A stretch of 64,000 nucleotides of DNA from an uncultured Nitrososphaerota archaeon (GTDB lineage Archaea > Thermoproteota > Nitrososphaeria > Conexivisphaerales > DTJL01): contig CAWJIE010000005.1 in NCBI GenBank assembly GCA_963842885.1, forward strand, positions 416,001-480,000, written 5' to 3'. The position numbers were made by a program, and so were the translations under genes. The notes under the pieces are model-generated. The model made no database searches. It was given only the letters and a program-made list of their open reading frames with translations, and was not told the DNA's origin. Of this stretch, positions 4,466 through 63,307 are shown one piece after another; the first letter of the stretch is position 1, and every line of letters begins with the position of its first letter.

Positions 4466-5095
4466 ATGGCAGCGCTATTTGACGTCGCCTCGGTGAGCTT
4501 CGTCGTGCAGCTGGCGACGGCCATCGCCGCCGGGGCAACGAGCGTGACGGCCTACAAGGGATTTAGGGCGACTGGAAGCGCCACATTCCTCAGGCTCTTC
4601 GCCAGCTTCGCCCTCCTGGCACTGGGGCTTCTCGCTGAAGGGCTGTCGGCGACCGTGGGCGGCGATGTCCTTTCGACGGCCGTGTTGATAGTCGGCTCCG
4701 CCTTGGAGGCTTGCGGCTACTTCCTGCTGGCTCTGTCTCACTTCTTCACGGTAAGGCGGGACATCTCCTCCCTGGGGACCCTTCTCCTCATACCCGCGAT
4801 CTCCGTCTCTGCGCTCATGTCAGTAAACCTCATCATGAGGGCCGTTTCGCTCTACCTCCTCCTCTACATCAGCGCGGAGACCTTCATCTTCTACTTCCAG
4901 AATCGCAGCAGTCCCACGCTGATCTCCATATCGGGGCTGCTCCTCATAACGCTGGGCGTCCTCCTTGACATGTTCAACATGCAGGCCGCCGACTTCGCCT
5001 TCATGTTCAACGTGTTGAAGCTCCTGGGCTTCGTCATACTATTCTCGCCGGTGGCCATCCTGTTCAGGCACAAGCCGGAGGTGACCTCGAAGTGA
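4466..5095 (+). CDS. Hypothetical multi-pass membrane protein (about 7 TM)
   Basis: Hydrophobic ORF, translationally coupled to the downstream wHTH gene. Confidence 0.75.
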   Translation: MAALFDVASVSFVVQLATAIAAGATSVTAYKGFRATGSATFLRLFASFALLALGLLAEGLSATVGGDVLSTAVLIVGSALEACGYFLLALSHFFTVRRDISSLGTLLLIPAISVSALMSVNLIMRAVSLYLLLYISAETFIFYFQNRSSPTLISISGLLLITLGVLLDMFNMQAADFAFMFNVLKLLGFVILFSPVAILFRHKPEVTSK

Positions 5096-33602: not shown

Positions 33603-33854
33603 CTATATGGGCTGGCGTTTATCGGTTGGCAGACCCTTAACGGCCCTCCAGTAGCAGTGCTTGTTTTTTCCCGTGCGGCCGTCCTTCCTGTGCCTGAACT
33701 CCCAGTAGAAATACGGGCCGCCTTCAGGGTTCTTCCCGGTACGTACAGTCAGATAGGGCCTCCACGACGCTCGCCCGCACTTCGGACACTTCACTAGGTC
33801 CCCCTTCTCCTCGAGTTCCATTCTGAAACCGTCCTTCTCCAACACCTGCAACAA
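33603..33854 (-). CDS. Small C2HC zinc-ribbon protein (paralog 1)
   Basis: CPKCGR...RTGKNPE..Y.Y..F.H..D.RTG.NK.CY; clear homolog at 48357..48587. Confidence 0.75.
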   Translation of the reverse strand: MLQVLEKDGFRMELEEKGDLVKCPKCGRASWRPYLTVRTGKNPEGGPYFYWEFRHRKDGRTGKNKHCYWRAVKGLPTDKRQPI

Positions 33855-34114
33855 CCGGCTCCACGCTCAACACCTTGCTTCTGTGCCCTAGCCCTTAGTG
33901 TTGCTGCACTAATCGGGTTGACAAGCGAGCCTAACAGGATTAACTGGAAACGGCTTGCATGCCAACGAGCGCGCTCAACACCCAAGGAGGGGGCGGGGGG
34001 ATGCCCAAGCAGGGCATCCACCACGTCGCGGTTGCAGCATCGCGCGCAACACTAGTGCAGCTTCCTTCCACCGAGGAAAGGGATTTTAACCGAAGGAGGG
34101 GACTCCATGACGAT

Positions 34115-38968: not shown

Positions 38969-39836
38969 GATACTCGCAAATAGGGGTCAGCTCCCCACGG
39001 AGCCTCGGCCAAGCGCTCGAGCTCCTTGCCTAGACGTGGCGAAGAATTGCGGGTCATATCGGGGGGCACGGACGTCACCGTCTACCTGAAGGATGGCATC
39101 CTCAAGGAATCTTGCCTTCTGAATTTGAGCAGGCTGAAGGAGTTGGATTACATTCGCGACGAGGGCGGATTCTGTCGCGATAGGCGCGCGTGTCACGTTC
39201 TCCGGGTTGGTGCGGAGCCGAATCGTCCGGCGCTGGGCGCCTCTTCTGTCAGAGGCCGCCGTCGAAGTGGGCTCCCTCCAGATACGAAACCTCGCGACGC
39301 TGGCGGGGAATATTTGCAACGCCTCTCCTGCGGCGGATTCTCTGCCGCCTCTGTACGTCCAAGGCGCGACCGTCGTCCTGACTAGCGCCGAAGGGAAGCG
39401 GGAGCTAACGATGGAGGAGTTCGTGTTGGGTCCCAGGAGGACGGCGCGGAGGCCTGGGGAGCTACTTACAGAGGTCAGGGTCCCCAAGATGGCGTCTGAC
39501 TCTCGCTACTTCTTCAAGAAGCTGGGATTGAGGAGTTCTCAGGCTATTTCGGTGGTTAGCGTTGCGGCCTCTTGGAAAAGGAGGAATGCGAAGATTGCGC
39601 TCGGTGCTGTCGCTCCAACTGTCGTGCGTGCGAGGCAAGCTGAAGCGTTTGTATCTAGATATGGTTTGAGTTTGAAGAGCATTGACGAAGTGTGCTTCCT
39701 AGTGTCGAAGGCCGCCTCCCCCATAGACGACCTCAGAGGGTCAAAGGGTTACAGGCTGGAGGCAATCAGGGCGCTTTCGTTTGAGGGCTTCTATGAACAG
39801 CTCGCAGGAGCGGGGATTGATGCGTGTAAAGCTTGA
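38965..39836 (+). CDS. FAD-binding medium subunit (CoxM/XdhB family), frameshifted near 39030 and 39175
   Basis: SGGTD, QIRNLATLAGN.CNASPAAD, GAVAPT, PIDDLRGS..YR. Confidence 0.9.
39690..39707 (+). repeat. GTGCTTCCTAGT motif copy 1 (intragenic)
   Basis: GTGTGCTTCCTAGTGTCG, identical over 18 bp to the copy at 63128-63145. Confidence 0.9.
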
Positions 39837-40044
39837 ACTGGGGGGTCCCCTCCGCGAGGAGAAGGGCCAGTGGCATTCGCTCAGGCTGTCAGTCGGTTCG
39901 ACTGTCAGCGATGCCCTTCGCAAGGTCGGAGTGACCGAGGAGCTCTACATCGTCGTGATGAGGAACGCGAAGAGGGTGGAGCTTTCCGAAGTCCTCGCCG
40001 AGGGGGACGTCTTAGTGGCTTTTCCACCGGTCGGAGGGGGTTGA
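39820..40044 (+). CDS. MoaD/ThiS/SAMP ubiquitin-like sulfur carrier
   Basis: Beta-grasp size; ends FPPVGGG. Confidence 0.88.
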   Translation: MRVKLELGGPLREEKGQWHSLRLSVGSTVSDALRKVGVTEELYIVVMRNAKRVELSEVLAEGDVLVAFPPVGGG

Positions 40045-45308: not shown

Positions 45309-46286
45309 TCACATACGCCTTGAAATAGTGCGGCGGAAGCTCTCGAGATCCTCGCGCTTGACAATCCTCGCATACGGGTCAAGACCGGCCCCTGAAATGC
45401 CAATCGCTATCGCTTCAGTGTTAGTGAAGACCCCCGGGGTGCCATTCCTATCGATCACTATAATACCCCCAGTGTTGTCCCCGAAGAGCCTCCCCATCTC
45501 CTGTACGGCCTTCTTTGCGGCCAAAGGCGCCGGGTTCTTCGACGCAATTAAGCCAACGGCCCTAAGACAGAGGCCACACTTAATGATCATTTCTCCGACG
45601 CCCGTGGCCGACGCCGCACCAACATTCCCCATGGCATAGTAACCCGCCCCGGCGATTGGAGAATCGCCCATCCGGCCCGGCAGCTTGAATTGCATACCGC
45701 CGGTGCTTGTGGCGGCAGCTAGGCCCCCGTCCTGGTCCAAGGCGACGGCTCCCACGGTGTCGGATGGTGCGGCGGCCCTCAGGTAGTTGCGATCCAGTCT
45801 CCCAATCCACCCCTGCTGCGACGAAGAGAGGTAGGACCTCCAACCCTGTTGGAAGGCCTCCGCCTTCTCTTTGGTGGGTAAGAACTTCTCCCTCAGGCCA
45901 TAGGCTTCGGCTAGCTTCTCGGCACCAGTAGAGACCAAGATGACGTGAGCGGTCTTCTCCATTACTATCCTAGCTAGTTCGACGGGGTGGGGGACGTCTC
46001 GGACGCACCCGACTCCGCCAGCGAGCAGCCTCTCACCGTCCATGATCCCCGCATCTAGCTCGATGTAACCTTCATAGTTAAGCGCGGCTCCCCTTCCAGC
46101 GTTAAGGACGCCCGAATCCTCCATCACCCTGACGGCGGCGACGACAGCATCGACAGCACTGCCCTTCCTGAGGGTCGAAGCCCCGGTCTCCGCCGCGTCT
46201 TCAAGAACCTTCCTGGCTTCTAGTGCAGCTCCTTCGTTCAAAGTCCAACGGCCGGCACCCCCTTGAACCACCATTTTGCCGTTCAA
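45309..46286 (-). CDS. Isoaspartyl peptidase/L-asparaginase (Ntn hydrolase)
   Basis: GGAG, NAGRGA, ELDA.IMDG, DTVGAVA, TSTGG, GR.GDSP. Confidence 0.92.
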   Translation of the reverse strand: MNGKMVVQGGAGRWTLNEGAALEARKVLEDAAETGASTLRKGSAVDAVVAAVRVMEDSGVLNAGRGAALNYEGYIELDAGIMDGERLLAGGVGCVRDVPHPVELARIVMEKTAHVILVSTGAEKLAEAYGLREKFLPTKEKAEAFQQGWRSYLSSSQQGWIGRLDRNYLRAAAPSDTVGAVALDQDGGLAAATSTGGMQFKLPGRMGDSPIAGAGYYAMGNVGAASATGVGEMIIKCGLCLRAVGLIASKNPAPLAAKKAVQEMGRLFGDNTGGIIVIDRNGTPGVFTNTEAIAIGISGAGLDPYARIVKREDLESFRRTISRRM

Positions 46287-46368
46287 GTTTCTGCAGAACT
46301 CCAGGCGGAGGCTCCAAGCTACCTCTTCTTAAAAGCATGGGGGAAGATGGAGGAGGACTCCGACCGGT

Positions 46369-46536
46369 CTACTTCCGCCTGAGTCCCTGCCGGATGATCT
46401 CCTCGATAAGTCGGCTTCTGTTAGCGGTGACCAGCTGGCCAGCCCTGACCTGGTCCGCCTGATGGCGACGAACGAGCTTGTCAAGATCCTGCAGAAGGTC
46501 TTCAGACAGGGTGATAGTCACCTTGGATTTCTTCAT
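46369..46536 (-). CDS. Ribbon-helix-helix (CopG-like) regulator
   Basis: KVTITLSEDLLQDLD...NRSRLIEEII. Confidence 0.8.
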   Translation of the reverse strand: MKKSKVTITLSEDLLQDLDKLVRRHQADQVRAGQLVTANRSRLIEEIIRQGLRRK

Positions 46537-46547
46537 AACATAAGATG

Positions 46548-46563
46548 GTATGATAGTATGATA
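46548..46563. promoter_or_regulatory. Tandem 8-bp repeat, candidate RHH operator
   Basis: GTATGATA x2, 12 bp upstream of the RHH start codon. Confidence 0.4.
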
Positions 46564-46741
46564 TAGCCTTTGTGCAAATAGACCATGATGTCCCGATACA
46601 ACAAGATGACGGTCATGGCCGCTCAGGCAGGCCGTCGTCGGCGAGTTGCCTAGCATGTCGATTGGGTCCGAGTTGCACGTCCAAGCTAATGCGCTGCAGA
46701 TATCGAACAAGATATCGTGTAAGATAGAGCCTAGGACCAAG

Positions 46742-47029
46742 CTATGCGTTTTCCTGTTCGATGCCGGCCGAGTCGCCATAGCCGCATCCGCAGGCCATCG
46801 TGTTCGTGAGCACGAAGTGCTTGTCTTCGCCCTCTATAACAAGGTCGATCTCCGCTTGTTCAAGGACCTCCGCGGTCCGCTTGTCTGTCGGGACAAAGAC
46901 ATCTCTTCCGTTGAAGATCAAGTCACCTCCGGGGACTTTGTCGACTAGGAACATGCAAAGTGCTAGGTTTACTTGGTCCGCCTGTTGCATGGAGAAACAG
47001 ATTGCCTCGTACTTGCTTTCAGATAGCAT
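46742..47029 (-). CDS. HesB/IscA-like (A-type Fe-S carrier) domain protein, degenerate
   Basis: D..F.G..VFV...T...LE...ID...F...N...CGCG. Confidence 0.6.
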   Translation of the reverse strand: MLSESKYEAICFSMQQADQVNLALCMFLVDKVPGGDLIFNGRDVFVPTDKRTAEVLEQAEIDLVIEGEDKHFVLTNTMACGCGYGDSAGIEQENA

Positions 47030-47143
47030 TCCCTTAAATTTGTCTGTTTTTGCTTTATTAAGTGTAATAAGTGTAATACTTACGAAGTTTGAGTTCGATT
47101 TGGTTTGATGTTAACTTTGTTTATTTTTTTGTTCTGTGATATT

Positions 47144-47158
47144 GTGTGCTTCCTAGTG
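47144..47158 (+). repeat. GTGCTTCCTAGT motif copy 2
   Basis: GTGTGCTTCCTAGTG after a T/G-rich tract. Confidence 0.9.
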
Positions 47159-47214
47159 CCCGAACCGAACGTCTCAAATAGCGCCAAAGCTCGCAATTCA
47201 CCGGCCGAGATGGC

Positions 47215-48045
47215 TTGAGGAGGAAAATCCGCGACTACGAAAGAGACCTTTGGGCACTGTTCTGGAGTTATTCCAATAGCGGCGAATTCAGCGAGATCCG
47301 GACTTACCTCCTCCAGCGCAGTGGACTCCCCGGGCCCAGGGGAAACCTCGAGCTAGCAACTGCCTTCGGGAACGTCATTCAAAGAGGTGTCGTCTCTGGT
47401 GCCCTCGATTCCAAGGAACTCCTCTCGCTCTGTCAGAGCCTGTGCCAGATACCTCCCGCACTGGCACCCACAAACGATCCCAAGGAGTTCTTGGTGCTCT
47501 GCGGAACATGCGGGCTGGGAGCCCTCGGGACCGTGGCAGCAGATTTCCAAGCCGTCGCTTCCAGTCTGAGCTCCTTAGCCGGCGACCTAAGATGGAGAAC
47601 TAGGGAGGGGGTTGCCATGGCCCTTCAGCGGATGATCGACGCAAAGCCAAAACAGACCCTAATGCTACTCGCCCAGTGGGTTGAAGTAAATGACCCCCTT
47701 CTCCTTCGAGCCGTCGTCGCGGGGGTGGCGGAGCCGAGGCTCCTCCGCAACGACGATGTAGCCCGGTCCGCCCTCGGGCTTCACCGGAGGATTTTCGAGA
47801 GGCTTTCGGAACTTGACCGCGAAGGCGACGACTTCAAGGCTCTAAGGAAGAGCCTCGGCTACTCTCTGAGCGTAGTCGTGGCTTCTTCGCCTAGGGAGGG
47901 CTTTGCTTTGATGAATGAGTTGGCTAGGAATGAGGATCATGATGTTATCTGGATAGTGAGAGAGAATTTGACGAAAAAGAGACTGGCGAAGTGCTTGGAT
48001 AATTTGGATACTGTGAAGAAGATACTTTCAAGTAAGCAGGTTTAG
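47215..48045 (+). CDS. HEAT-repeat-like helical protein
   Basis: SGLPGPRGNLELA, DLRWRTREGVAMALQR, AEPRLL, W.VRENL.KKRL. Confidence 0.75.
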   Translation: MRRKIRDYERDLWALFWSYSNSGEFSEIRTYLLQRSGLPGPRGNLELATAFGNVIQRGVVSGALDSKELLSLCQSLCQIPPALAPTNDPKEFLVLCGTCGLGALGTVAADFQAVASSLSSLAGDLRWRTREGVAMALQRMIDAKPKQTLMLLAQWVEVNDPLLLRAVVAGVAEPRLLRNDDVARSALGLHRRIFERLSELDREGDDFKALRKSLGYSLSVVVASSPREGFALMNELARNEDHDVIWIVRENLTKKRLAKCLDNLDTVKKILSSKQV

Positions 48046-48149
48046 CCGTTGCATTGTGAAGTGTCTTCTACGTGTCTGGTCTCTTGTATATTGATTCTTT
48101 TGTGTTAATTTATTGAATTGGGTTTTGTTTATAGAGAAGGGTTGGTTGT

Positions 48150-48163
48150 GTGTGCTTCCTAGT
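48150..48163 (+). repeat. GTGCTTCCTAGT motif copy 3
   Basis: GTGTGCTTCCTAGT after a T/G-rich tract. Confidence 0.9.
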
Positions 48164-48356
48164 AGGAGGCTGGGCAGGGTGGCTCTGAGCTGCCTTGGTG
48201 TTGTCCATTAGAAGCGTTCTCGACCCAGCAGTCTGGGCAATCAAGCTCGGGTATTTGTCAAGCATGCAATGGGGATGCTTTAGGTGTTGAGCGCGATTTA
48301 GCCTGTCATCAGGGGGACCCGGTAATCGGCGGCGTGCCTACGGGTCATCAGTCGGC

Positions 48357-48587
48357 GTGGACAACTTTATGTATCCAAGAAACGTGGTGTTGTCCGTGCC
48401 GCGACAGAATCTGATCAGGTGCCCTAAGTGCGATAGGCTGGCTTGGAACCCTGATATCGCTATCAGGACCGGTAAGAACCCCGAGAAGAAGTACAGCTAC
48501 TACAGATACAGGCACCCTCTCGACAGGCGGACCGGCCGCAACAAAACGTGCTACGTCCCGGTCGTCAAGCCCGACCCCAACCACTAG
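48357..48587 (+). CDS. Small C2HC zinc-ribbon protein (paralog 2)
   Basis: CPKCDR...RTGKNPE..Y.YY..RH..D.RTG.NKTCY; stop codon lies inside the ACTAGGAAGCAC motif. Confidence 0.75.
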   Translation: MDNFMYPRNVVLSVPRQNLIRCPKCDRLAWNPDIAIRTGKNPEKKYSYYRYRHPLDRRTGRNKTCYVPVVKPDPNH

Positions 48588-48594
48588 GAAGCAC
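48582..48594 (-). repeat. GTGCTTCCTAGT motif copy 4 (inverted)
   Basis: CACTAGGAAGCAC on + strand, followed by an A/C-rich tract. Confidence 0.9.
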
Positions 48595-48681
48595 CCCATC
48601 AAACCAACAACTGCTCTCAACACTCTTAACAATAAGAATTCGAATTTACATAAAAAGATTCTCCCTTATCAATATAACGTA

Positions 48682-49098
48682 TCATTTCCCTCGAAACGCA
48701 TCAGCCTTACGCAACAAAATCTTTATGTTTTCATAAATAGTTGCTCTCATAGCCTCTTCCAAGGTCATCCAAACGAAATCCCGGTGTTCATTCGAAATCT
48801 TCACGTTGACGCTGTCAGTATAACCCAGGTAATATCGTACAGATTTATGAACCTTAGCTCCCCCTGGCCGCAAGTAGAAGTAAGTAATTTTCTCCGCGAA
48901 CCCGTCGACGAGCTTTATGTCAGGGAGGCCCGTTTCCTCCCTTGCTTCTCGGACCGCCGCGTTCAGCTCCGACTCACCAATTTCGATGTTGCCCTTGGGA
49001 AAGTCATACTTCGACTTGTCGTTTCTCAGCAATAGGTACTTGGTGACTCCATCCTGGGTATGGAAGACTACTACCCCAGCCGAACGCTCTTCGAGCAA
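48682..49098 (-). CDS. NUDIX hydrolase (Ap4A hydrolase-like)
   Basis: PKG.IE.GE....AA.RE.REETG Nudix box, S.EH. Confidence 0.92.
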   Translation of the reverse strand: MLEERSAGVVVFHTQDGVTKYLLLRNDKSKYDFPKGNIEIGESELNAAVREAREETGLPDIKLVDGFAEKITYFYLRPGGAKVHKSVRYYLGYTDSVNVKISNEHRDFVWMTLEEAMRATIYENIKILLRKADAFRGK

Positions 49099-49214: not shown

Positions 49215-50845
49215 TCAGCGCCTCCGCTTCTTGTCCTTTTTCACCAGTGTTCGATCTTCGCCATCCAGGGGCTTGACGTCGATCCTCATGCCCAGAGACT
49301 CCTCGAGGCTCATTATGTTCTCCCCCTTCCTCCCGATGAGCCTAGGGATGGTCTCCCGGCCCACCCTGACGACGACCTTGTTGCCAGATAGCAGGTCGAC
49401 TTCTGCGTTGGGGTCGTACTCCTTCATCCTCGAAGCTATCTTGTCGAGGGCGAGCTTCTCCACGCCGGACGCCCTTTTCTTGGCGCCCTCGTCTTGGGTG
49501 ATGGGGACTATCACGTTCTCTTCGCCGAAGGTGTATATTTCATGCGTGAGCCTCCCCGTTTCAAAGTCCCTGACCTCGACCAGGGGCCTGGCCAGGTCCT
49601 CCTCCACCATGCCCGTCGGGGTCCTGACGACAAGGTTCAGATCCAGTACGGCTTGGATCTTCCCGGCCTTGACGAAGATGATCGTGTCGATGATGTGAGG
49701 TATCATCCCGAGCTCCACGCGTCCAATGAAGCGCTGGACTGCGTCGACGGGCCCGCTGGCGTGGACCACCCCCACCATGCCCACCCCCGCCAGCCTCATG
49801 TCGGCGAAAACGGTGAAGTCGGAGGTCTTCCTCACTTCGTCATATATCGTGAAGTCGGGCCGGACGAGCAAGAGGATCTCCGCGGACTTCTCAAACTCGC
49901 CCTCCAGGGCGCCATACTGGGTGATAGCCGGTGGCACCTGAAGGTCCCTCGGGGACTCGAACGTCTTGACGATCTTCCCCTGCCTCATGTAGTACTCCGC
50001 GATACTCGAAGCCAATGTGCTCTTGCCGGACCCAGGGGGCCCTGCGATGATGACGCCTTCGGCCTTGTGGGCGAGCCTCTCCATGAGCTTCTCGGAGAGA
50101 TTGTAGTCCTCCAGCGTAAGCTTCACTATGGGTCGGACGATCGTTATCTCCACACCGTCGCTGAAGGGGGGCCTCGCCACCGCAATCCTGAAGTTCCCCA
50201 GCTGAGTAGACGCTGGCCCCGCTCATCTTGAGTTCCTGGAAGGCGTCCCTGCTGACCCTGGAGGCCTCATGTATCTCGGTCTCAATCTCCTCCAGCTCCT
50301 CCCTGGTGAGGGGCTTCTCCCCTATCTTCACCAGCTCAAAGGCCCCTGGCCCGCCTCTCTTTGCCATGGGCACGACGTCCTCCTTCAGATGGACGCTGAG
50401 GGTCTTGGAGTCGAAATAGCTCTCGAACTTCAGGTCCTTGGTCTTTATTGCCGGGCCGGAGATGCTTCACCTTCACTCCCTCGGCCTCGGCCGTCAGATA
50501 GAGGACGTAGTCGGCGGTGTAAAGGGTCCCGTTCACTTCACGGGCGACGTCCCGGATCATCCCGTCAATCCTTCCCTTCTTCGCCAACCTGATGTCGTCG
50601 AAGGAGGGCTTGGGACCGTAGAAGTAGAGCCTGTAGCCCTTTGACTCGCAGAAAAGGCGGATCTTCTTGAGCTCTGCCAGACCTATGAAACCCACGTTCA
50701 CGTTTCTTGAAGCCTGTGCTTGAAGTTCGTCGAGGGCGGCGTAAGGGACGCAGACTTCGACGTCCTTTATCTCTCCGCTCTCAAGCGAGCGCCAGAAAAT
50801 ACCATCTATGATGGCGCTCGTATCCAGTACGGCAGTATCTGTCAT
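49215..50845 (-). CDS. PINA: PIN domain-ATPase-KH protein (frameshifts near 50200 and 50440)
   Basis: VLDTS PIN start, GPPGSGKST, RPDFTIYDE, IGRKGENI KH motif. Confidence 0.9.
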
Positions 50846-55492: not shown

Positions 55493-56003
55493 TTGGACGC
55501 CCTTGAAGCCGTTCTAAGCCGAATAGAGGTCAGGGACTTCGCACCCACTCCCGTGCCGCGCGATGTACAAATCAAGGTCCTCGAGGCGGCAAGGATGGCC
55601 CCCAGTGCCTACAACAAACAACTGTGGCACTTCATCCTCATCGACGACAGGAAACTCCTGACCGACTTGGGGAAGATTTCGACCACAGGGCCCTACATCA
55701 AGGACGCCGCGTTCGCCGTTGCTGTGCTCGTCGACAAGACGTATCCGCAGTCTAGCATGGACTCCGATAAGATGCATCCAGGGCATGATGATCGCCGCAT
55801 GGGGGTTAGGTCTGGGGTAATGCTATGTTGGGGGCATCGACAGAGAGAAAGCCAAGGAGATATTGAAGGCGCCAGCGAAGCTTTACGTCGCCTCCATCAT
55901 CCCGTTCGGATACCCGGCGAAGGCTCTAGAAGGGAAGAAGAGCAGAAAACCTCTGTCGGAGGTAGCGTCCCTCAACACCTACGGTAACAAGATCCTTCAC
56001 TAG
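55493..56003 (+). CDS. Nitroreductase family protein (frameshifted)
   Basis: R.EVRDF, APSAYNKQ.WHF, IPFGYP in shifted frame. Confidence 0.85.
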
Positions 56004-56364
56004 TCGTTTCAGAACATCCGATAAGCGTCGCCATGCGGCCAAACCGAGCCCATCTGAGCACTTTTCGGTACGGAATGCGTCCACCGAGGGACCGTTGGGA
56101 CTGGCGGTGAAGAACTATCCACTCTGGACGAGCCGGCAGGAATTATCCATTCTAGGAAACCAAGAAGAACCCCGTTCAATAATTTGACTGAGTCAATATC
56201 GCACGGATTGTGCTCAACACCCAAAGAGTCTCCATTACCTGCCAGGGGCTACTGCACGCATGGTTCCCCGCTAAGCCTGAACTCAGGGAAGTTGTCCACT
56301 GTGCAACAACACCGCCGGCATCGCCAACTGATGTTTTAATACTAGGCGAATCGTCTTTCGACTC

Positions 56365-56895
56365 ATGCCCATCGTCGAATTCCAGCATCGTAAGCCCATC
56401 CTGAGCAGAGACTGCTGGGTCGCTCATTCCGCGCTGCTGATTGGCGACGTGTCTCTCGCTTCAGGGAGCAGCGTCTGGTTCAACGCGGTCCTTCGCGGGG
56501 ACAACGCCTCGATAAAGGTCGGCAACGACAGCAACATCCAAGAAGGGGTGGTCGTCCATCCTGACCGGAGTGCGGCCTTCATAGGCCAGAGGGTCACTGT
56601 CGGCCATCACGCCTCCCTGGAGGGGGTCTACATCGACGACGAAGTCCTCATAGGGATTGGTGCCCTGGTCCTGGAGGACACAAGGGTGGGGAAAGGCAGC
56701 CTTGTCGCCGCCGGAAGCGTGGTTCCGTCAGGCCTCTCCATTCCGCCAGGTAGCCTCGTGATGGGCAACCCGGCGAGGATTGTCGGTGAGGTGGAGCCGA
56801 AACACCTCAAGCTCATCCAGGAAGGCTGGCATCATTACACCGAGCTTAAGGAGGAATACAGACAGATCCCCTCCTTCGACATCAAGAAGACATAG
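56365..56895 (+). CDS. Gamma-carbonic anhydrase-like hexapeptide repeat protein
   Basis: IGDV, WFNAVLRGD, NIQEG.V.H, VGH, GNPA. Confidence 0.9.
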   Translation: MPIVEFQHRKPILSRDCWVAHSALLIGDVSLASGSSVWFNAVLRGDNASIKVGNDSNIQEGVVVHPDRSAAFIGQRVTVGHHASLEGVYIDDEVLIGIGALVLEDTRVGKGSLVAAGSVVPSGLSIPPGSLVMGNPARIVGEVEPKHLKLIQEGWHHYTELKEEYRQIPSFDIKKT

Positions 56896-56966: not shown

Positions 56967-59843
56967 TTGAGCACTAAGCGCGGCGTCGAAGGGGTATTCA
57001 GGAGCTTCACTCCGGCGATAGTGGAGCTGCTCATAGAGGGGAACATCCTGAAGCCCACGCCGCCTCAGGTGGAGGCCATCCCCCTGATCTCCTCTGGCAG
57101 GAACACTTTGGTCGTCTCCCCAACGGGATCCGGCAAGACGGAGGCCGCCATCCTCCCCATCCTGGATATAATGGTGAGGGGCTCGGTGCAGTCGAAACGG
57201 GGGGTCCTCCTCCTCTTCATCACCCCGCTGAGGGCTCTCAACCGTGACCTCCTCGACAGGATGACGCGCTGGTGCAAGACCCTCGACATTCGGCTGGCCG
57301 TAAGGCACGGAGACACGGAAACCGCGGAAAGGAGGACGCAGACCATGGCGCCCCCGCACGTCCTCATCACCACGCCGGAGACCCTGGAGGTCCTCCTCGT
57401 CGCTAAGGTATTCAGGGAGCACCTTAGGAGCCTGCGTTGGGTCGTGGTGGACGAAATACACGAGCTCGCCACCGACAAGCGGGGCACGCAGCTGGCCGTC
57501 GCCCTGGAGCGCCTAAGAAGGCTCACGGATGCGGACTTCCAGCGCATCGGATTGTCCGCCACCGTCGGCGATCCCGAGAAGGTCGCCAACTTCCTTGTGG
57601 GCCCAGGTAGGGAATGCTCCGTCGTCAAGACGCCGGTGGCCAAGCTTTTCAAGTTCGAGGTCCTCTACCCGGAGGCGAGCAAACAGGACTCGGCCATGGC
57701 TGACAAGATGATGAGCCACCCGGACGTGACCGCCAGGCTGAGGACCATGCTGCGCCTCATCGAAGAAGGGCCCCTCCTCATCTTCACCAACACCAGGACC
57801 GAAGCTGAAATCCTGACAAGCCGGCTCAGGCAGTGGAGTCCCCGCATAGCGATAGCCGTCCACCACGGGAGCCTCTCTCGGGCCTCCAGGTCAAAGGCTG
57901 AAGAGGACCTGAAGTCGGGCCGATTAAAGGCCGTTGTATGCACCAGCAGCCTCGAGCTGGGCATTGACGTGGGCCTGTTGAACCTCGTCATCCAATATAA
58001 CTCTCCGAGACAGGTCGTTCGGCTCATACAGCGTGCTGGGCGGAGCGGCCACACTCTGGAGAGGACCAGCAGGTGCGTAGTCATCTGCCAGGACGCCGAC
58101 GACGCCCTAGAGGCTGCGGTGGTAGGGAGGAGGGCGAAGGAGGAGCTTCTCGAAGAACCCGTCATCCCCATGCTGTGCAGCGACGTGCTGGTGCAGCAGC
58201 TCTCTGGCCTGCTCATCGAATCCGGCAGGCTGGAGACGAGCGATGCACTTTCCCTATTCAGGAGGAGCTTTCCATTCACCCAGCTGAACGAGCGCGACAT
58301 CAGGGAGGCCGTCGACTACATGGCGATGCTCAAGCCTCGTCTGGCAAGGGCTGCGGGGGATGACATCGCCCGACCTTCGGACAACCGCGGCCTTTTCACG
58401 TATTATTTCGACAACCTCACCATGATCCCTGAGCACCGGCAGTACCCCGTCATCACCGAAAAGAAGGAGGCGGTGGGGCTCCTCGACGAGGAGTTCGTGT
58501 CGGAGCACGGCGAGATAGGGAAGAAGTTCATCCTCAGGGGGAGCGTCTGGAGGATAAACCAGGTTTACAACTCCAAGGTCTTTGTCGAGGAAGACGACGA
58601 CCCGATGGGAGCCATCCCGAGCTGGGTGGGCGAAGAGATACCCGTGCCCACCGAGGTCGCAATGGAGGTCGGGAGCCTCAGGGGCCTGGCCCCGAGAGCC
58701 GAGTCGGAGGGGAAGCACCTCTCTGCGCTCTGCGAGGAGCTGGCCGCCCGGTACCCCATGAGGGAGGAGGGGTTCAAGAGATCCCTCTCCTCCGCCGTCC
58801 AGCAGCTGAAGATGGGTCTGGCTCTTCCGTCAGACTTCACGATCACGGTCGAACAGTGGAAGGAGCTCGTCATCATAGTGACCCACAGGGGGCTCAAGGC
58901 GAACAGGACGCTGGGTCGACTGCTTTCATACAGATGCTCTTCGGTCCTGGGGAAGCCCGTCAGCGTCAACCAGGACGCATACAGGATATTCCTGGAGGGC
59001 AAGACGCTCACCTGCGAATCCGTCAAGGACGCCCTCGGCTATCTGGCAGAGAGCGACCTCGTGTCCTATGTGACCGCCGCCTGCGAAGACACGGGCCTCT
59101 TCCGGAGGAGGTTTGTCCACGTCGCTCGTAAGATGGGCGTCCTCTCGAGAGACGCAGAGCTAACGAGCTCCCTGGTCAAGCAGCTCGTCGAGACCTACAA
59201 GGGCTCCCTCCCGTACAGAGAGGCCTGGAGGACCTTCCTCCAAGAGGACTTGGATTCGAGAGAGACCAGCGCCCTCCTCGCAGGGCTCGCCTCAGGCAGG
59301 ATCGCCGTCGAGCTGCTGGGCCGGCTGGCTGAGCCCAGCCCCATCGCCATGATAGGGCTCGAAGAGATGTCCCGCAAGGGCGAGGTGATGGATCCGGCAA
59401 AGATGAAGCGGCTCCTCCTCGAGTCGGCCAGGTCCAGGGTGCTCAACGGAAGGACCATCCTCGTCTGTCCCAACTGTTGGAACTACGTCGAAGAGAAGTA
59501 CGTCGTCGACCTTCCCGAAAGGATCTCCTGCCCCCTGTGCAAATCCGACAGGGTGGCATCGTCCTACCGCGAACTTGAAGAGATGCAGGACCTGGCCAGA
59601 AAGGTGCGGAGCCGCACGAGCCTCTCCAGAGGGACGCTGAGACACAAGAAGGAACTGGAGGGAAGCTCGCGCCTAAATTCGACCTTCGGATCCATGGGAG
59701 TAAAGGCCCAGGTCTTCAACGTCGCCCTCGCACGGCTGGCCGAGATGCTCGCCAGGGCCCCAGGGAACGAAGACGACCTCCTCCTCGCTCTGATGGAGGA
59801 GGAGAGGAAGACGTACTTGAAGCGCTTCGTGGGCTCTAGGTAG
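56967..59843 (+). CDS. Lhr-family SF2 helicase with C-terminal Zn finger
   Basis: PTGSGKT, DEIH, SAT, HHGSL, SSLELGID, QRAGRSGH, PSWVGE, CPNC/CPLC. Confidence 0.93.
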   Translation: MSTKRGVEGVFRSFTPAIVELLIEGNILKPTPPQVEAIPLISSGRNTLVVSPTGSGKTEAAILPILDIMVRGSVQSKRGVLLLFITPLRALNRDLLDRMTRWCKTLDIRLAVRHGDTETAERRTQTMAPPHVLITTPETLEVLLVAKVFREHLRSLRWVVVDEIHELATDKRGTQLAVALERLRRLTDADFQRIGLSATVGDPEKVANFLVGPGRECSVVKTPVAKLFKFEVLYPEASKQDSAMADKMMSHPDVTARLRTMLRLIEEGPLLIFTNTRTEAEILTSRLRQWSPRIAIAVHHGSLSRASRSKAEEDLKSGRLKAVVCTSSLELGIDVGLLNLVIQYNSPRQVVRLIQRAGRSGHTLERTSRCVVICQDADDALEAAVVGRRAKEELLEEPVIPMLCSDVLVQQLSGLLIESGRLETSDALSLFRRSFPFTQLNERDIREAVDYMAMLKPRLARAAGDDIARPSDNRGLFTYYFDNLTMIPEHRQYPVITEKKEAVGLLDEEFVSEHGEIGKKFILRGSVWRINQVYNSKVFVEEDDDPMGAIPSWVGEEIPVPTEVAMEVGSLRGLAPRAESEGKHLSALCEELAARYPMREEGFKRSLSSAVQQLKMGLALPSDFTITVEQWKELVIIVTHRGLKANRTLGRLLSYRCSSVLGKPVSVNQDAYRIFLEGKTLTCESVKDALGYLAESDLVSYVTAACEDTGLFRRRFVHVARKMGVLSRDAELTSSLVKQLVETYKGSLPYREAWRTFLQEDLDSRETSALLAGLASGRIAVELLGRLAEPSPIAMIGLEEMSRKGEVMDPAKMKRLLLESARSRVLNGRTILVCPNCWNYVEEKYVVDLPERISCPLCKSDRVASSYRELEEMQDLARKVRSRTSLSRGTLRHKKELEGSSRLNSTFGSMGVKAQVFNVALARLAEMLARAPGNEDDLLLALMEEERKTYLKRFVGSR

Positions 59844-60405
59844 AAGGTTGTGAGGCGTCTATGCGCTTCGAAAGTATGGAGGTGAGGAGCTCGTCCCTGT
59901 CTATCTCCACGCGGCTCCTCCACCCGACCCGGATGAAGTCGCCATCTTCCTCCAGGTAGCCCAGGCGCACGAGCTTGTTCATGATCTGCTGAACGCGCCA
60001 CGCTGGAAGCTTCTCCTTGATGGTGTCCTCAAGGAGGCGCTTGGGGGCCGAGCCCGCACGCACGAAGAGCTGGCTCAAGAGGATGGCCAGGCTCGCCGCC
60101 TCCTCCATCCTGAGCCATCCGCCAAGCTCCCTGTCCTTCAGGGGCGCCTTGGTCACCAGCACGTAGCGGGCCTTGTCCGGATCCTTCTCGTCTTCCTCGT
60201 CGGGCACCGCGACGAGCTTCAGGCCGAATTCCGAGGCCAAAGAGTCCGTCAGCTTGAGGACGTCAAGGTAGCTCCTCCCGAGGAGGCGCTTGAGCTCCCA
60301 ACCTTTGAGACCAGGCTGGAAGTGGCGCTGGTAGAGCAGTGTCGTAAGGCCCTTCAGGGCCTTCTCTTTGAGCTCTTGCGTGTCCTTGTTCTGTTCTTGT
60401 GTCAC
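59836..60405 (-). CDS. Tandem winged-helix protein, putative kite (ScpB/Nse-like) partner of the SMC-like ATPase
   Basis: Third gene of the SMC operon; C-terminal L.RLGYLEE....IRVGWR wing motif. Confidence 0.6.
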   Translation of the reverse strand: MTQEQNKDTQELKEKALKGLTTLLYQRHFQPGLKGWELKRLLGRSYLDVLKLTDSLASEFGLKLVAVPDEEDEKDPDKARYVLVTKAPLKDRELGGWLRMEEAASLAILLSQLFVRAGSAPKRLLEDTIKEKLPAWRVQQIMNKLVRLGYLEEDGDFIRVGWRSRVEIDRDELLTSILSKRIDASQPST

Positions 60406-60410
60406 CCATC

Positions 60411-61139
60411 TCACCCCAATGAAATCGCAACGGACCTGTCTACTTTGCCCTCCGCAGGCGTTATGAGATAGTCCGAAGTGGACGGGTCGTAGCGGAGGGC
60501 GAACGCTCCCCTCATGCACAGGTGGGCAAGAGAGTAGGTCTCCTTGAGCTTCTCCGCCCCCTGGAAGCCGCCCGCGAACTCCTTGAAGAGAAGAGGACCT
60601 TCGGCAAGCCTCCGGCTGACCCTGAGGAATGTGGACCGGAGGCACTTTTCAAGCTCCTCGGGGTCCATCCTTATGGATTCATAGGCGGTCCCTTCGTCCG
60701 CTGGTCCCAGCGGCCCCAGCCGGCCTAAAGAACCCCACCCGTAGAGCTGCACCCAGTAATCGGCGGCCTCGAGCAGCCTCGAGGTGGGCATCAGCTTCGC
60801 AGCGGCCGGGGGATGGTGCGCCTCCCCCAATGCCCCCGCTATGTCCGAGACGCTGAGAGACATCAGCTTGGAGATGAGAAGGCCCGGGTCCACCTGGAAG
60901 GTCGTCAATTGGAAGGTGAGCCATTCGTCCTGCAGGCCGACGACCTTGCTGACCGCGTTGATGGCCTGGGCGTCGGCGAGGAGGTCTTGCCTCTCCAGCT
61001 CCTTGAGGCCCTTCTTTAGCCTCCTCAGTATGGGCTTGACCTCCACCATGAAGGGATCTCCTCCCTGGTCCTTGAGGTCCTCAGGGAGCGAAGCCACCCT
61101 GAGCCTGTACTCCTTCGCGTCACTCGACTTTGCTGACAC
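60411..61139 (-). CDS. Putative kleisin (ScpA-like) partner of the SMC-like ATPase
   Basis: DPF.VEV N-terminal motif resembling ScpA DPW.IDI; C-terminal wHTH-like segment; overlaps the SMC stop. Confidence 0.55.
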   Translation of the reverse strand: MSAKSSDAKEYRLRVASLPEDLKDQGGDPFMVEVKPILRRLKKGLKELERQDLLADAQAINAVSKVVGLQDEWLTFQLTTFQVDPGLLISKLMSLSVSDIAGALGEAHHPPAAAKLMPTSRLLEAADYWVQLYGWGSLGRLGPLGPADEGTAYESIRMDPEELEKCLRSTFLRVSRRLAEGPLLFKEFAGGFQGAEKLKETYSLAHLCMRGAFALRYDPSTSDYLITPAEGKVDRSVAISLG

Positions 61140-63127: not shown

Positions 63128-63145
63128 CGACACTAGGAAGCACAC
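63128..63145 (-). repeat. GTGCTTCCTAGT motif copy 5 (inverted), upstream of the SMC operon
   Basis: CGACACTAGGAAGCACAC on + strand, followed by an A/C-rich tract. Confidence 0.9.
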
Positions 63146-63307
63146 ACCAAAACAACTCCAAAATTCAACAACAACTATGCGAATGGAACCCAGAGCAAGA
63201 GAAGCTAACAGAACTCATGAAGCGGTAGAAAGAAGCACAAATGCCGACCCTAACCATAAGGCCCCAGTGCCCAAGAAACAAGACGGCCGCCGCACCTGTC
63301 GGCTCTC

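Follow-up and report, generated by a model that had tools for sequence, protein, structure and literature searches.

A short, oriented DNA sequence recurs around an orphan zinc-ribbon gene, here ZnR76, in a Conexivisphaerales-like archaeon, and the DNA on its 5' side is poor in C. Comparisons within and between genomes demonstrate the anatomy of this element, its placement at orthologous sites, the lock between its orientation and the skew, and its composition; the element is confined to one genus and, there, to one neighbourhood of ~24 kb. Our best reading, which we hold tentatively, is that it is a genus-specific, polar, two-part protein-binding element that flanks the zinc-ribbon gene and is not a C-to-T scar. 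A full-text literature search with the core sequence and the name of the order returned only unrelated primers and ecology papers, and we found no description of the element itself in the literature searched.

Copies of the core and their arrangement around ZnR76

The 15-base motif GTGTGCTTCCTAGTG is present in five copies in the 2.03-Mb genome, and every copy lies within the 64-kb stretch of DNA analysed here (the window). These copies were detected in the window at 0-1 mismatch (Table 1), and the scan of the 2.03-Mb genome detected no further copies outside the window. A sixth hit in the window, at 4493 and with 3 mismatches, was judged unrelated, and six or more motif matches were obtained in 0 of 100 shuffles. 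The exact 10-nt core also occurs once each on contigs C2 and C3, both times without the GTG prefix and with ordinary flanks (C 32 and 41 of 120). All five copies are oriented towards ZnR76, which is flanked by the two convergent copies 3 and 4; the CTAG of copy 4 provides the TAG stop codon of ZnR76. The gene for a molybdopterin subunit starts at 39870, after the gene that hosts copy 1.

Table 1. Features of the window. For each copy, C/G/T/A gives the base counts in the flank, i.e. the 120 nt 5' of the copy, read on the motif strand.
Feature	Position	Strand	Remarks
CO-dehydrogenase flavoprotein-like gene	39207-39836		holds copy 1
Copy 1 short arm	39630..39689	+	20 codons; C per 30 nt 2, 5
Motif copy 1	39690..39704	+	exact; inside CO-dehydrogenase flavoprotein-like gene, codons V-C-F-L-V; C/G/T/A 20/39/32/29
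IscA/HesB-like gene	46742..47029	-	antiparallel to copy 2
Copy 2 arm	47030..47143	+	114-nt divergent spacer; C10 G20 T60 A24
Motif copy 2	47144..47158	+	exact; 57 nt ahead of HEAT-like ORF start; C/G/T/A 11/21/62/26
HEAT-repeat-like gene	47215..48045	+	tail C-avoiding from ~47880
Copy 3 arm	48046..48149	+	C10 G27 T50 A17; possible decayed core near 48066-48080
Motif copy 3	48150..48164	+	1 mismatch; C/G/T/A 11/32/54/23
Motif B	48268..48294	+	precedes ZnR76 and includes GGTGTTGAGCG; conserved in all four species
ZnR76	48357..48587	+	orphan zinc-ribbon protein, 76 aa
Motif copy 4	48582..48596	-	1 mismatch; convergent with copy 3; C/G/T/A 9/34/46/31
Copy 4 arm	48597..48681	-	C5 G21 T36 A23 on minus strand
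NUDIX hydrolase gene	48682..49098	-	C-poor, T-ending tail in all four species
SMC-like ATPase gene	61120-63048		downstream of copy 5
Motif copy 5	63131..63145	-	exact; 82 nt ahead of SMC-like ATPase gene start; C/G/T/A 21/33/53/13
Copy 5 flank	63146..63307	-	C-free in first 30 nt only

Across 33 non-redundant sites from seven lineages, the core is TGCTTCCTAGT, usually in the form GTGTGCTTCCTAGTG; 10 of its 11 positions are identical in 33/33 sites and T10 is present in 31/33, in a scan whose pattern tolerated C at positions 6 and 10 (found at 1 and 2 sites, respectively). Moreover, the motif was detected at orthologous intergenic sites in three of the four other genomes of the genus; among 36 genomes from outside the genus, it was detected in one (G012), as a single 1-mismatch match that was taken for chance. 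Every copy faces ZnR76, in the order +++-- in the genome studied here (G000), +++--- in G003, ++-- in G002 and +- in G004, and all metagenome loci that reach the flanks of a ZnR76 homologue have inward-pointing cores on both sides.

Close homologues of ZnR76 were found in this genus only. Of nine ZnR76 homologues, seven weakly matched recombinase zinc ribbons and three matched InsA (best E 4.6e-4 and 0.029, respectively), all below the Pfam cut-offs; the AF2 model of ZnR76 has a mean pLDDT of 72 and gave no match in the PDB at E<=0.001. The ZnR-family genes of other genera as well as the paralogue ZnR2 carry different upstream iterons (of the 'motif B' types), which suggests that ZnR proteins bind motif B rather than the core. 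Similarly, the HEAT-like gene is present in this genus and in 0/4 genomes of other genera. Its product matched no Pfam or NCBIfam family at E<0.1; its nearest Atlas clusters are bacterial HEAT proteins, a lead only, and Atlas clusters of DNA-alkylation-repair proteins scored only 0.88, likewise a lead.

Composition and turnover of the arms

The 5' flanks of copies 2-4 are C-poor and T-rich (C 9-11 of 120), the C-poverty is weak at copies 1 and 5, and the downstream flanks of all five copies have an ordinary composition. Genome-wide, C<=10 was observed in 109 of 2,033,309 segments of 120 nt, and contig C5 has tracts with C<=13 or G<=13 at copies 2, 3 and 4 and nowhere else. C per 30 nt climbs with distance from copy 2 (2,1,2,6,7,6,6,9) and from copy 4 (1,2,2,4,3,4,5,6,5,7,9), where the depletion grades onward into the NUDIX tail, to ~48860. 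At copy 5, the remainder of the flank is the antisense of a decayed or truncated Glu/Lys-rich small ORF, which is intact, with 45-47 aa, in three relatives. The arms are not a repeat family (z<=2.6 for all 21 pairs), nor are they hypermutated duplicates of nearby DNA (z<=1.5 within 4 kb around, with C merged with T); a diversity-generating retroelement was likewise rejected, the arms having no homology to one another or to the 4 kb around.

The preliminary description had tied the footprint to the strand of the motif, and this tie holds across lineages. In the 30 nt 5' of the core, C is 0.11 and T is 0.38, T exceeds A at 26/33 sites, and G exceeds C at 32/33 sites compared with 19/33 downstream, irrespective of the orientation of the neighbouring gene. 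Thus, the skew is locked to the motif. An arm is present in all seven lineages, with C of 0.08-0.21 in positions -60 to 0 versus 0.20-0.33 downstream. It is weak in G003 and G004 despite perfect cores and, therefore, the arm is unnecessary for keeping the core. The orthologous divergent spacer between the HesB-like and HEAT-like genes is skewed in G002, L035 and L038, and weakly in G003. In the relatives, the core is 0-20 nt away from the stop codons of the HEAT and NUDIX genes and, therefore, the arm is the coding tail itself; the HEAT tail, like the NUDIX tail, is C-poor in all four species. Finally, relatives in which copy 1 is imperfect have no arm there.

In the neighbouring genes, the T-ending tails that had been described were recovered at two of three places. 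The last 50 codons of the HEAT-like gene have C in 6% and T in 34% of third positions versus 40% and 15% in mid-gene (T3-C3 rank 3/1726 ORFs); T/(C+T) in this tail is 0.85, a value reached in 1/1726 ORFs, and A/(A+G) drops to 0.20. The NUDIX tail has C 18% and T 34% versus 29% and 18% (rank 28/1726), while the PfkB tail proved ordinary (rank 829/1726, T/(C+T) 0.26, 4 T-endings in the last 17 codons). The A-ending codons listed for the start of the HesB-like gene, which IscA models match at E 2e-5, far below cut-off, are indeed present (9 of the first 30); the signal in them is marginal. An A3>=0.30 over the first 30 codons, the level of this gene, is reached in 7.9% of ORFs, its whole-gene A/(A+G) of 0.49 is reached in 5.4% of 95-codon blocks, and the A-endings are not concentrated towards the motif-proximal end. 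The coding evidence from the sole antiparallel gene, the crux of the earlier argument, is marginal.

The idea that the depletion is a plain C>T signature was not borne out. T-A versus G-C is 36/10, 33/17, 13/16 and 45/17 in four arms, i.e. T-A far exceeds G-C overall, and the arms grew through C-poor insertions. In the arm of copy 1, 14 G000-specific substitutions fall in 20 codons, of which 10 are amino-to-keto and 1 is keto-to-amino (binomial p=0.012), with C>T and A>G at 4 each; these substitutions alter a conserved enzyme at the amino-acid level. Near the cores, the pooled ratio of amino-to-keto to keto-to-amino changes is 60:33 compared with 97:96 elsewhere (Fisher p=0.031). C>T versus G>A changes in the G000 lineage are 10 versus 10 in the HEAT tail and 12 versus 11 in the NUDIX tail, a test of low power because these tails were C-poor beforehand; C was lost to G and A there, too. 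Equal A>G and C>T are a poor fit to spontaneous deamination. Moreover, the runs that carry the locus are labelled peat and freshwater, and heat-driven deamination is therefore unlikely.

Compared with a close strain, 19 of 37 differences lie within 46954-47135 and none in the core; they are one-sided at copy 2, with 19 in the 182 nt on the 5' side versus 2 in the 190 nt past the core. The copy 2 arm differs from the close-strain contigs at 12 sites, and the first 26 codons of the HesB-like gene contain 7 differences, 6 of them non-synonymous by our reading. The differences near copy 2 are balanced (9 with the keto base in the window versus 9 with the amino base), and the few that can be polarised run in both directions. 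In 3 runs of 2 studies, a 31-nt C-poor insertion is present behind 48079, and beyond 48611 other contigs have a non-homologous plus-strand sequence that is equally A-rich. Thus, the composition of the arms survives turnover of their sequence. In the contigs of four runs, we detected no joints of an excised or inverted form between the convergent copies.

Transcription, replication and the origin of the arms

In agreement with the preliminary description, ordinary terminators fail to explain the skew. The genome has no T-enrichment after stop codons (mean T of 0.21-0.22 after 1723 stops, which equals background), and the combination of C<=11 and T>=45 in the 100 nt past a stop was found in 1/1725 ORFs, the HEAT-like gene itself; an archaeal intrinsic oligo-T terminator was rejected, as a general T-rich signal after stops is missing genome-wide. 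The companion claim, that the footprint does not follow the direction of transcription, was not supported: it rested on the upstream neighbour only, and at 4/5 copies a co-oriented gene (coxL-like, HEAT-like, ZnR76 and SMC-like) starts 57-193 nt downstream. Moreover, AT-rich octamers lie 14-48 nt upstream at 21/33 sites versus 4/33 downstream (centres at -19 to -44). Because of these downstream genes and upstream octamers, the motif strand may be the strand of a transcript that starts there. The 33 aligned sites have no position-specific TATA signal, and several lineages have a ACTATTAAG-like conserved block ~30 nt before the HEAT-side core. Co-oriented genes precede copies 3, 4 and 5 but not copy 2, and copy 1 is intragenic; the extra copy in G003 follows a KH-ATPase gene and has an arm that is not T-rich (T 15 of 120). 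Rfam gave nothing at gathering score in the whole window and chance-level matches only (E ~5) at 46900-48800 and 55900-56450, and a tRNA scan gave nothing at the locus.

The cumulative keto skew of contig C5 in G000, a genome that is not closed, has its maximum at 468 kb, coinciding with the locus, and the third-position keto skew by gene strand flips there (p=0.002 and p=0.047 on the left and right sides, respectively). G002 has a skew peak at the locus on a short contig, and the chromosome-scale skew of G003 has no significant strand effect and does not reproduce the switch. A replication origin with ORB sites and an unwinding element was rejected, as both orc1/cdc6 (Cdc6_C) matches are on contigs C3 and C4 and not on C5; moreover, the AT-rich DNA is outside, and not between, the convergent copies.

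In the reading that we tentatively prefer, the near-invariant core TGCTTCCTAGT, which follows a C-poor, G/T-rich arm without conserved sequence on the same strand, is the predicted binding site of a lineage-specific DNA-binding protein, for which ZnR76 is the obvious candidate. The core would coincide with, or closely follow, the point where a co-oriented transcript starts, serving the coxL-like gene, the HEAT-like gene, ZnR76 in sense and antisense and the SMC-like operon, and the arm would be the DNA upstream of the promoter, with a composition that is maintained or driven even as the sequence itself changes. C-poor insertions have lengthened the arms in this species, as has a drift in which amino bases (A, C) give way to keto bases (G, T) and which extends 100-270 nt into the neighbouring genes; what we infer is that a protein binds, where transcription begins and why the drift arose. 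Several observations sit uneasily with this reading: 100-270 nt of skewed DNA and amino-acid changes in a conserved enzyme go beyond the needs of a promoter, a regulon limited to 24 kb with no sites elsewhere is unusual, and divergence is raised on the 5' side of copy 2 only. The weak arms in G003 and G004, the different iterons of ZnR genes in other genera and the missing TATA signal also count against it.

A live alternative, in which our confidence is likewise limited, generalises the idea of the preliminary description to mutagenesis anchored at the core: a core-bound protein would repeatedly stall a replication fork or RNA polymerase that approaches from 5' of the core, or nicking and resection would occur at the site, so that the 100-270 nt before the core on the motif strand would often be single-stranded or resynthesised with low fidelity, and deamination or G.T-wobble misincorporation would turn C to T and A to G on this strand in any gene. 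This would account for the increase of C with distance at copies 2 and 4, the one-strand synonymous shift in the HEAT tail, the 10:1 amino-to-keto excess at copy 1 and the pooled excess near cores, the clustering of strain differences with the core spared, and the lack of an arm at imperfect copies 1 in relatives, with a strength that depends on the lineage. However, strand-specific transitions from a symmetric start require T-A to equal G-C, which the values of 36/10, 33/17 and 45/17 contradict. Likewise, C>T and G>A changes are equally frequent in the two tails (at low power), where C also gave way to G and A, the strain differences near copy 2 are balanced, the arms were enlarged by insertion, equal A>G and C>T are unlike spontaneous deamination, and the peat and freshwater labels of the runs make heat-driven deamination unlikely. 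Unlikely, in our view, is a roadblock terminator or insulator, in which the core-bound protein would pause RNA polymerase coming from the 5' side and the T-rich arm would give a weak rU:dA hybrid and transcript release, copies behind genes ending them and copies before promoters shielding these from read-through. The T-rich arm lies directly 5' of the oriented site at all strong copies, copies 3, 4 and 5 and the extra G003 copy follow genes, and the anatomy matches a Reb1/TTF-I site preceded by a T-rich release sequence, as described in the accessible text of PMC3045592; however, no co-oriented gene lies upstream of copy 2, the arms are G/T-rich and do not consist of long T runs, a T-rich arm is missing from the extra G003 copy, release elements span tens of nt and not 100-270 nt into coding sequence, and the genome makes no general use of T-rich terminators.

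We consider it improbable that the locus is a mobile or horizontally acquired relic, with the cores as terminal inverted repeats of an IS- or MITE-like ZnR76 unit (copies 3/4) or of a HEAT plus ZnR76 insert (copies 2/4) and the AT-rich flanks as insertion site or foreign DNA. These copies are inverted repeats around genes that were not detected in other genera, the neighbours of the HEAT-like protein are bacterial (a lead only), and the InsA and recombinase zinc-ribbon matches are weak; however, the copies occupy orthologous positions in all species with none elsewhere in the genomes searched, no catalytic transposase or recombinase domain was found, the contigs of four runs contain no inverted or excised form, and the arms of solo copies and the new arm of copy 1 in a native gene are left unexplained. 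A very improbable reading is an archaeal fork-pausing system independent of Tus-Ter and RTP-Ter: the cores would be polar barriers bound by the zinc-ribbon protein, whose gene lies in the centre between the innermost sites, forks converging on the locus would pause at the outer faces of the cores, and the last 100-270 nt of the motif strand, repeatedly exposed or resynthesised, would acquire G.T-wobble errors and, with them, keto-rich shadows. Such shadows would ignore gene orientation and even rewrite the codons of a conserved enzyme, and they would fit the flip of the third-position keto skew at the locus in G000. That nothing special is present, i.e. AT-rich spacers, ordinary terminators and codon noise beside a conserved short sequence, is hardly credible: the coding claims for PfkB and HesB are chance-level or marginal and the flank of copy 5 has a mundane cause, but the genome-extreme composition and an orientation lock at 32/33 sites in seven lineages largely refute it.

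If the arms are functional, the locus would hold an undescribed directional cis-element of uncultured non-ammonia-oxidising Nitrososphaeria, in which a conserved core is joined to an arm defined by composition only, with an effect large enough to influence the codon usage of adjacent genes. Should they be a by-product, they would be a natural record of site-anchored, strand-specific mutagenesis from which the direction of the fork or polymerase could be read with nothing but the sequence. Either way, a C-poor tract beside a motif is easily misread as deamination; the parity and spectrum tests argue otherwise.

Comparison with known systems

Sequence-specific polar barriers are known in bacteria and in eukaryotic rDNA; to our knowledge, none has been described in archaea. 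In RTP-Ter of B. subtilis, polar sites lie in opposed groups around the gene for the terminator protein. The same holds for Tus-Ter of E. coli, where, according to the accessible text of PMC8707476, short non-palindromic polar sites in opposed groups surround the gene for a small DNA-binding protein, Tus autoregulates through TerB, a site in the promoter of its gene, and narrow fork traps with only two sites exist. At the locus described here, polar non-palindromic sites are also found in two opposed groups, at a place that coincides with the maximum of the cumulative keto skew of contig C5 (not reproduced in G003). The differences are that the host is an archaeon, the candidate binder is an unrelated zinc ribbon and all sites lie within 24 kb; moreover, Ter sites lack T-rich arms whereas the cores have them, and stalled forks marked by the arms would halt before reaching the centre, the opposite of a Tus or RTP trap.

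The zinc ribbons of IS1 InsA and of large serine recombinases resemble ZnR76 in that a small zinc-ribbon gene lies between inverted short sequences. They differ in that the matches of ZnR76 are below cut-off and that it has no catalytic partner, mobility or dispersed copies. Terminal inverted repeats of an IS or MITE were rejected, since the copies are in one neighbourhood at orthologous sites, with no catalytic domain and no joints. Clusters of mutations in single-stranded DNA, as in replication skew or resection, are strand-specific, clustered and distance-dependent, as are the changes here, which enrich the motif strand for keto bases. Unlike strand-coordinated clusters, however, the arms have A>G as often as C>T, T-A in excess of G-C, and insertions, with no deaminase or nuclease identified; the inequality of T-A and G-C and the 4 C>T and 4 A>G changes at copy 1 likewise led us to reject a C-to-T deamination footprint.

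RNA polymerase I terminator systems have a promoter-proximal site as well. As in the Reb1/TTF-I systems, the copies here would lie both after transcription units and before promoters. In Reb1/Nsi1 and TTF-I terminators, as far as the accessible text of PMC3045592 describes them, the oriented site is directly preceded by a T-rich element on the transcribed strand, and a T-rich element was found directly upstream of the oriented, predicted site here. These systems belong to another domain of life and use another polymerase and another protein, and the arm described here is G/T-rich, extends up to 270 nt and enters coding sequence.

Base composition around the motif

The five copies of the motif GTGTGCTTCCTAGTG (Table), a count that 0 of 100 shuffles reached, are the only ones in the whole 2.03-Mb genome (11 contigs, ~58% GC; the window is G000:C5:416001-480000). 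The genome has two further exact 10-nt cores, both without the GTG prefix and with flanks of ordinary composition. Read on the motif strand, the 120 nt preceding the core have 11, 11 and 9 C and 62, 54 and 46 T at copies 2, 3 and 4, and 20 and 21 C at copies 1 and 5; composition is normal in the downstream flanks. Genome-wide, C<=10 occurs in just 109 of 2,033,309 120-nt windows, and on contig C5 no tract other than those at copies 2, 3 and 4 has C<=13 or G<=13. C per 30 nt increases outward from the core at copy 2 (2,1,2,6,7,6,6,9), copy 3 (0,1,6,4,3,4,1,2,7,9) and copy 4 (1,2,2,4,3,4,5,6,5,7,9); at copies 1 and 5 the depletion is confined to the first 30-60 nt. The footprint is real at copies 2-4. 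Most of the flank of copy 5 is antisense to a small Glu/Lys-rich ORF (MCCG...SAELYE..., Table), which three relatives have in intact form, 45-47 aa long.

Features of the window
Feature	Position	Strand	Remark
Motif copy 1	39690	+	window scan, 0-1 mismatch
Motif copy 2	47144	+	as copy 1
Motif copy 3	48150	+	as copy 1
Motif copy 4	48582	-	as copy 1
Motif copy 5	63131	-	as copy 1
ZnR2	33603-33854	-	ZnR76 paralogue, 83 aa
GGTGTTGAGCG, two copies	33864-33874, 33972-33982		upstream of ZnR2
tRNA-Gly(CCC)	45688-45790	+	ARAGORN call, 103 nt, inside asparaginase ORF of opposite strand
PINA-like Holliday-junction ATPase	49215-50180, 50336-50845	-	split into PIN ORF and KH-ATPase ORF
Two ORFs without clear family	59836-60924	-	269 and 81 aa, after short SMC-like ATPase
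Small conserved ORF (MCCG...SAELYE...)	63176-63260	+	divergent from SMC-like gene; 5'-truncated, with a stop here

T amounts to 0.21-0.22 after 1723 stop codons, which is the background, i.e. there is no T-enrichment 3' of stops, and the preliminary description was right that ordinary terminators do not explain the pattern. A single ORF out of 1725, the HEAT-like gene, combines C<=11 with T>=45 in the 100 nt past its stop, and one gene, again HEAT-like, has C<=11 in -180..-60 ahead of its start. The skew at copies 2-4 is not this genome's general way of starting or ending genes. The neighbouring genes, mostly housekeeping, are those of CO-dehydrogenase subunits, arcadin-1, asparaginase, an IscA/HesB-like, a HEAT-like and a NUDIX protein, a PINA-like ATPase, ThyX, Lhr, a short SMC-like ATPase and PfkB. 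With ORFs called by a simple longest-ORF rule, a co-oriented gene starts 57-193 nt downstream of four of the five copies; copy 4 is directed at the 3' end of ZnR76, an orphan zinc-ribbon gene.

Among 41 related genomes including this one, the motif (<=1 mismatch) was found here and in three of the four other same-genus genomes, the fourth genus member being 59% complete, and G012 had a single match, with a mismatch. The relatives retain the synteny between PfkB and the CO-dehydrogenase genes, with copies at orthologous positions: ahead of the SMC-like gene, in the HesB/HEAT divergent spacer, downstream of the HEAT-like gene and of NUDIX, and inside the flavoprotein gene; in G003 an additional copy separates the KH-ATPase gene from NUDIX. 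Every copy is oriented toward ZnR76. Scanning metagenome contigs with an alignment of ZnR76 turned up 13 loci, and in the 10 examined, inward-pointing cores lay on both sides wherever the ZnR76 flanks were reached.

Pooling gave 37 distinct sites, reduced to 33 by collapsing flanks at least 85% identical; these are orthologous across kin, and hence non-independent. With a pattern that permitted C or T at two core positions, 10 of the 11 positions of the core TGCTTCCTAGT were invariant in all 33 sites, and T10 was present in 31. The 30 nt 5' of the core contain C 0.11, G 0.31, T 0.38 and A 0.20; farther upstream C is 0.18, 0.21, 0.21 and 0.23, and 3' of the core 0.27. G exceeds C in these 30 nt at 32 of 33 sites, which bears out the claim that the skew is tied to motif orientation. 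By lineage, C in -60..0 is 0.08 in this genome, 0.02 in a near strain (one site), 0.10, 0.12, 0.15 and 0.18 in others, and G003 and G004 each have 0.21. At 21 of 33 sites an AT-rich octamer precedes the core by 14-48 nt, vs 4 of 33 on the 3' side; a ACTATTAAG-like block ~30 nt 5' of the HEAT-side core is common to several lineages, and G002 has a tandem pair of cores 159 nt apart with T-rich DNA in between.

Codon choice and direction of change

T-ending codons had been described in the 3' ends of the co-oriented genes. This was confirmed for the HEAT-like and NUDIX tails, which rank 3 and 28 among 1726 ORFs by T3-C3. Third positions of the last 50 HEAT-like codons have C 6%, T 34% and G 48%, vs 40%, 15% and 27% mid-gene; the NUDIX tail has C 18% and T 34% vs 29% and 18% for comparison. 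The HEAT tail reaches T/(C+T) = 0.85, a value attained by one of 1726 ORFs, and its A/(A+G) is down to 0.20; therefore, the shift is toward G and T on one strand, not toward A+T. The PfkB tail, for which the same was claimed, is ordinary (rank 829, T/(C+T) 0.26, four T-endings among the last 17 codons). The HesB-like gene is the sole antiparallel gene and the crux of the original finding. Nine of its first 30 codons do end in A, but 7.9% of ORFs attain that level, and its whole-gene A/(A+G) of 0.49 is attained by 5.4% of 95-codon blocks. Its changes specific to this genome, amino-to-keto vs the reverse on the motif strand, were 11:9 near the core and 23:14 far from it, i.e. without a core-proximal effect. 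On its evidence, the preliminary description did not establish that transcription plays no part.

Had strand-specific transitions acted on DNA that was symmetric at first, T-A would have to equal G-C; in the arms, i.e. the C-poor DNA 5' of the cores, these values are 36 vs 10, 33 vs 17, 13 vs 16 and 45 vs 17. By parsimony polarisation with proteins only 60-75% identical, C>T vs G>A in this lineage was 10 vs 10 in the HEAT tail and 12 vs 11 in the NUDIX tail, a spectrum of low power because the ancestral tails were already C-poor. In the HEAT tail, C was also lost to G (6) and A (5). The 20 codons preceding copy 1 have 14 changes specific to this genome, with both relatives agreeing (C>T 4, A>G 4, C>G 1, A>T 1, T>C 1, G>T 3), 10 amino-to-keto vs 1 keto-to-amino (p=0.012); pooled, the ratio is 60:33 near cores and 97:96 elsewhere (p=0.031). 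Directional drift exists but is toward G+T, and A>G occurs in it as often as C>T.

Contigs of runs X1 and X2 of one study, in which rare variants are hidden, differ from the window at 37 listed positions in 46300-48079, of which 19 are in 46954-47135, none in the core and two in the next 190 nt. The 19 divide 9:9 in direction, plus one A/C change, and no consistent direction was found after polarising with two further lineages. Seven of the 19 are within HesB, six of them non-synonymous (codons read by eye). A 31-nt C-poor insertion behind 48079 in three runs of two studies makes the arm of copy 3 polymorphic in length, and beyond 48611 other relatives' contigs diverge into unrelated sequence of like composition. 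Homology was found neither among the arms nor to nearby DNA after C/T merging. Runs in which the stretch occurs are labelled peat and freshwater. Several of these tests speak against C-to-T mutation, or against it as the sole change; of the C>T footprint first described, the skew at copies 2-4 stands, and a C-to-T change was not established by the preliminary description.

ZnR76 and the wider locus

ZnR76 has 76 aa with CPKC, then YYRYRHP, then CY. A search of 5.8 billion proteins gave six homologues, one labelled Conexivisphaerales and none with a Pfam domain. The model (pLDDT 72) had no PDB fold match. Members of the ZnR76 family match zinc ribbons weakly (recombinase 7/9, InsA 3/9). Four genomes representing three other genera of the family, where synteny differs, gave no match to the HEAT-like protein; ZnR-family genes are present in two other genera as well. 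GGTGTTGAGCG occurs once upstream of ZnR76; at L047 (2253-2436) a ZnR-family gene is preceded by one 12-mer three times, and at L048 (2331-2535) by a different 12-mer four times. These repeats look like lineage-specific iterons changing along with the protein. Such differing iterons upstream make ZnR76 less likely as the protein that would bind the core. A third copy of the 25-nt block preceding ZnR76 lies at 56212-56236(-), in a 378-nt gap (55988-56364) between nitroreductase and hexapeptide-transferase genes that yielded neither a convincing ORF nor an Rfam hit; a promoter or a small RNA may be located there.

The PINA-like region is a single open frame (535-546 aa) in two other genera and has one TGA within the match in a third; in this genus its PIN part also matches in two frames. 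The 269-aa ORF has a faint MAGE-homology match (E 0.006), and the SMC-like ATPase and two ORFs could form a small SMC-kleisin/kite-like operon whose leader contains the motif. The tRNA-Gly(CCC) call is probably spurious, or else an intron-like oddity.

The cumulative keto (G+T) skew of contig C5 has its maximum at 468 kb, and the motif copies are at 455.7-479.1 kb. At 400-464.3 kb, plus-strand genes have the higher third-position keto skew (-0.020 vs -0.095, p=0.002), and at 464.3-526 kb the lower (-0.086 vs -0.035, p=0.047), i.e. the sign of the skew by gene strand flips at the locus. A 48-kb contig of G002 also peaks at the locus; a 172-kb contig of G003 has only a flat local maximum near it, with no significant strand effect, and did not reproduce the flip. 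Both orc1/cdc6 genes are on contigs other than C5. The pattern is suggestive of converging replication, no more. Low-C/low-G tract clusters, A-rich and not T-rich, at C4 ~288-355 kb, a region with one of the orc1/cdc6 genes (344.7 kb), and at C2 1-12 kb may be foreign islands.

Readings of the footprint and known systems

We tentatively rank first, as one possibility, that the footprint is the arm of a polar two-part cis-element, because the arm recurs in all lineages, its composition survives sequence turnover and insertion, and it is present even where encoded within gene tails. In relatives, the HEAT and NUDIX stop codons are 0-20 nt from the core, and the HEAT stop of G004 is the TAG of the core; there the arm is therefore coding tail. 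Both tails are C-poor in all four species, and this genome has 104 and 85 nt of extra non-coding DNA at these places. A mutagenic process anchored at the core is a close second, itself doubtful, because of the distance gradient of C, the drift at copy 1, which has a direction and alters amino acids, the excess of strain differences on the 5' side only, and the weak arms next to perfect cores in G003 and G004.

A roadblock terminator, third, seems improbable. The relic of a mobile element, fourth, is a distant prospect. Chance, fifth, is hardly credible.

The proteins here are unrelated to those of Tus-Ter and Reb1/TTF-I, and membership in either system cannot be claimed; the likeness would be one of layout and anatomy. 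Tus-Ter has opposed polar sites, one of them in the promoter of the protein's gene (PMC8707476), and the layout here is likewise of opposed polar sites with one at the putative promoter of a candidate protein's gene. The Reb1/TTF-I terminator is a site with a T-rich release element upstream (PMC3045592), an anatomy that the arm and site here resemble.
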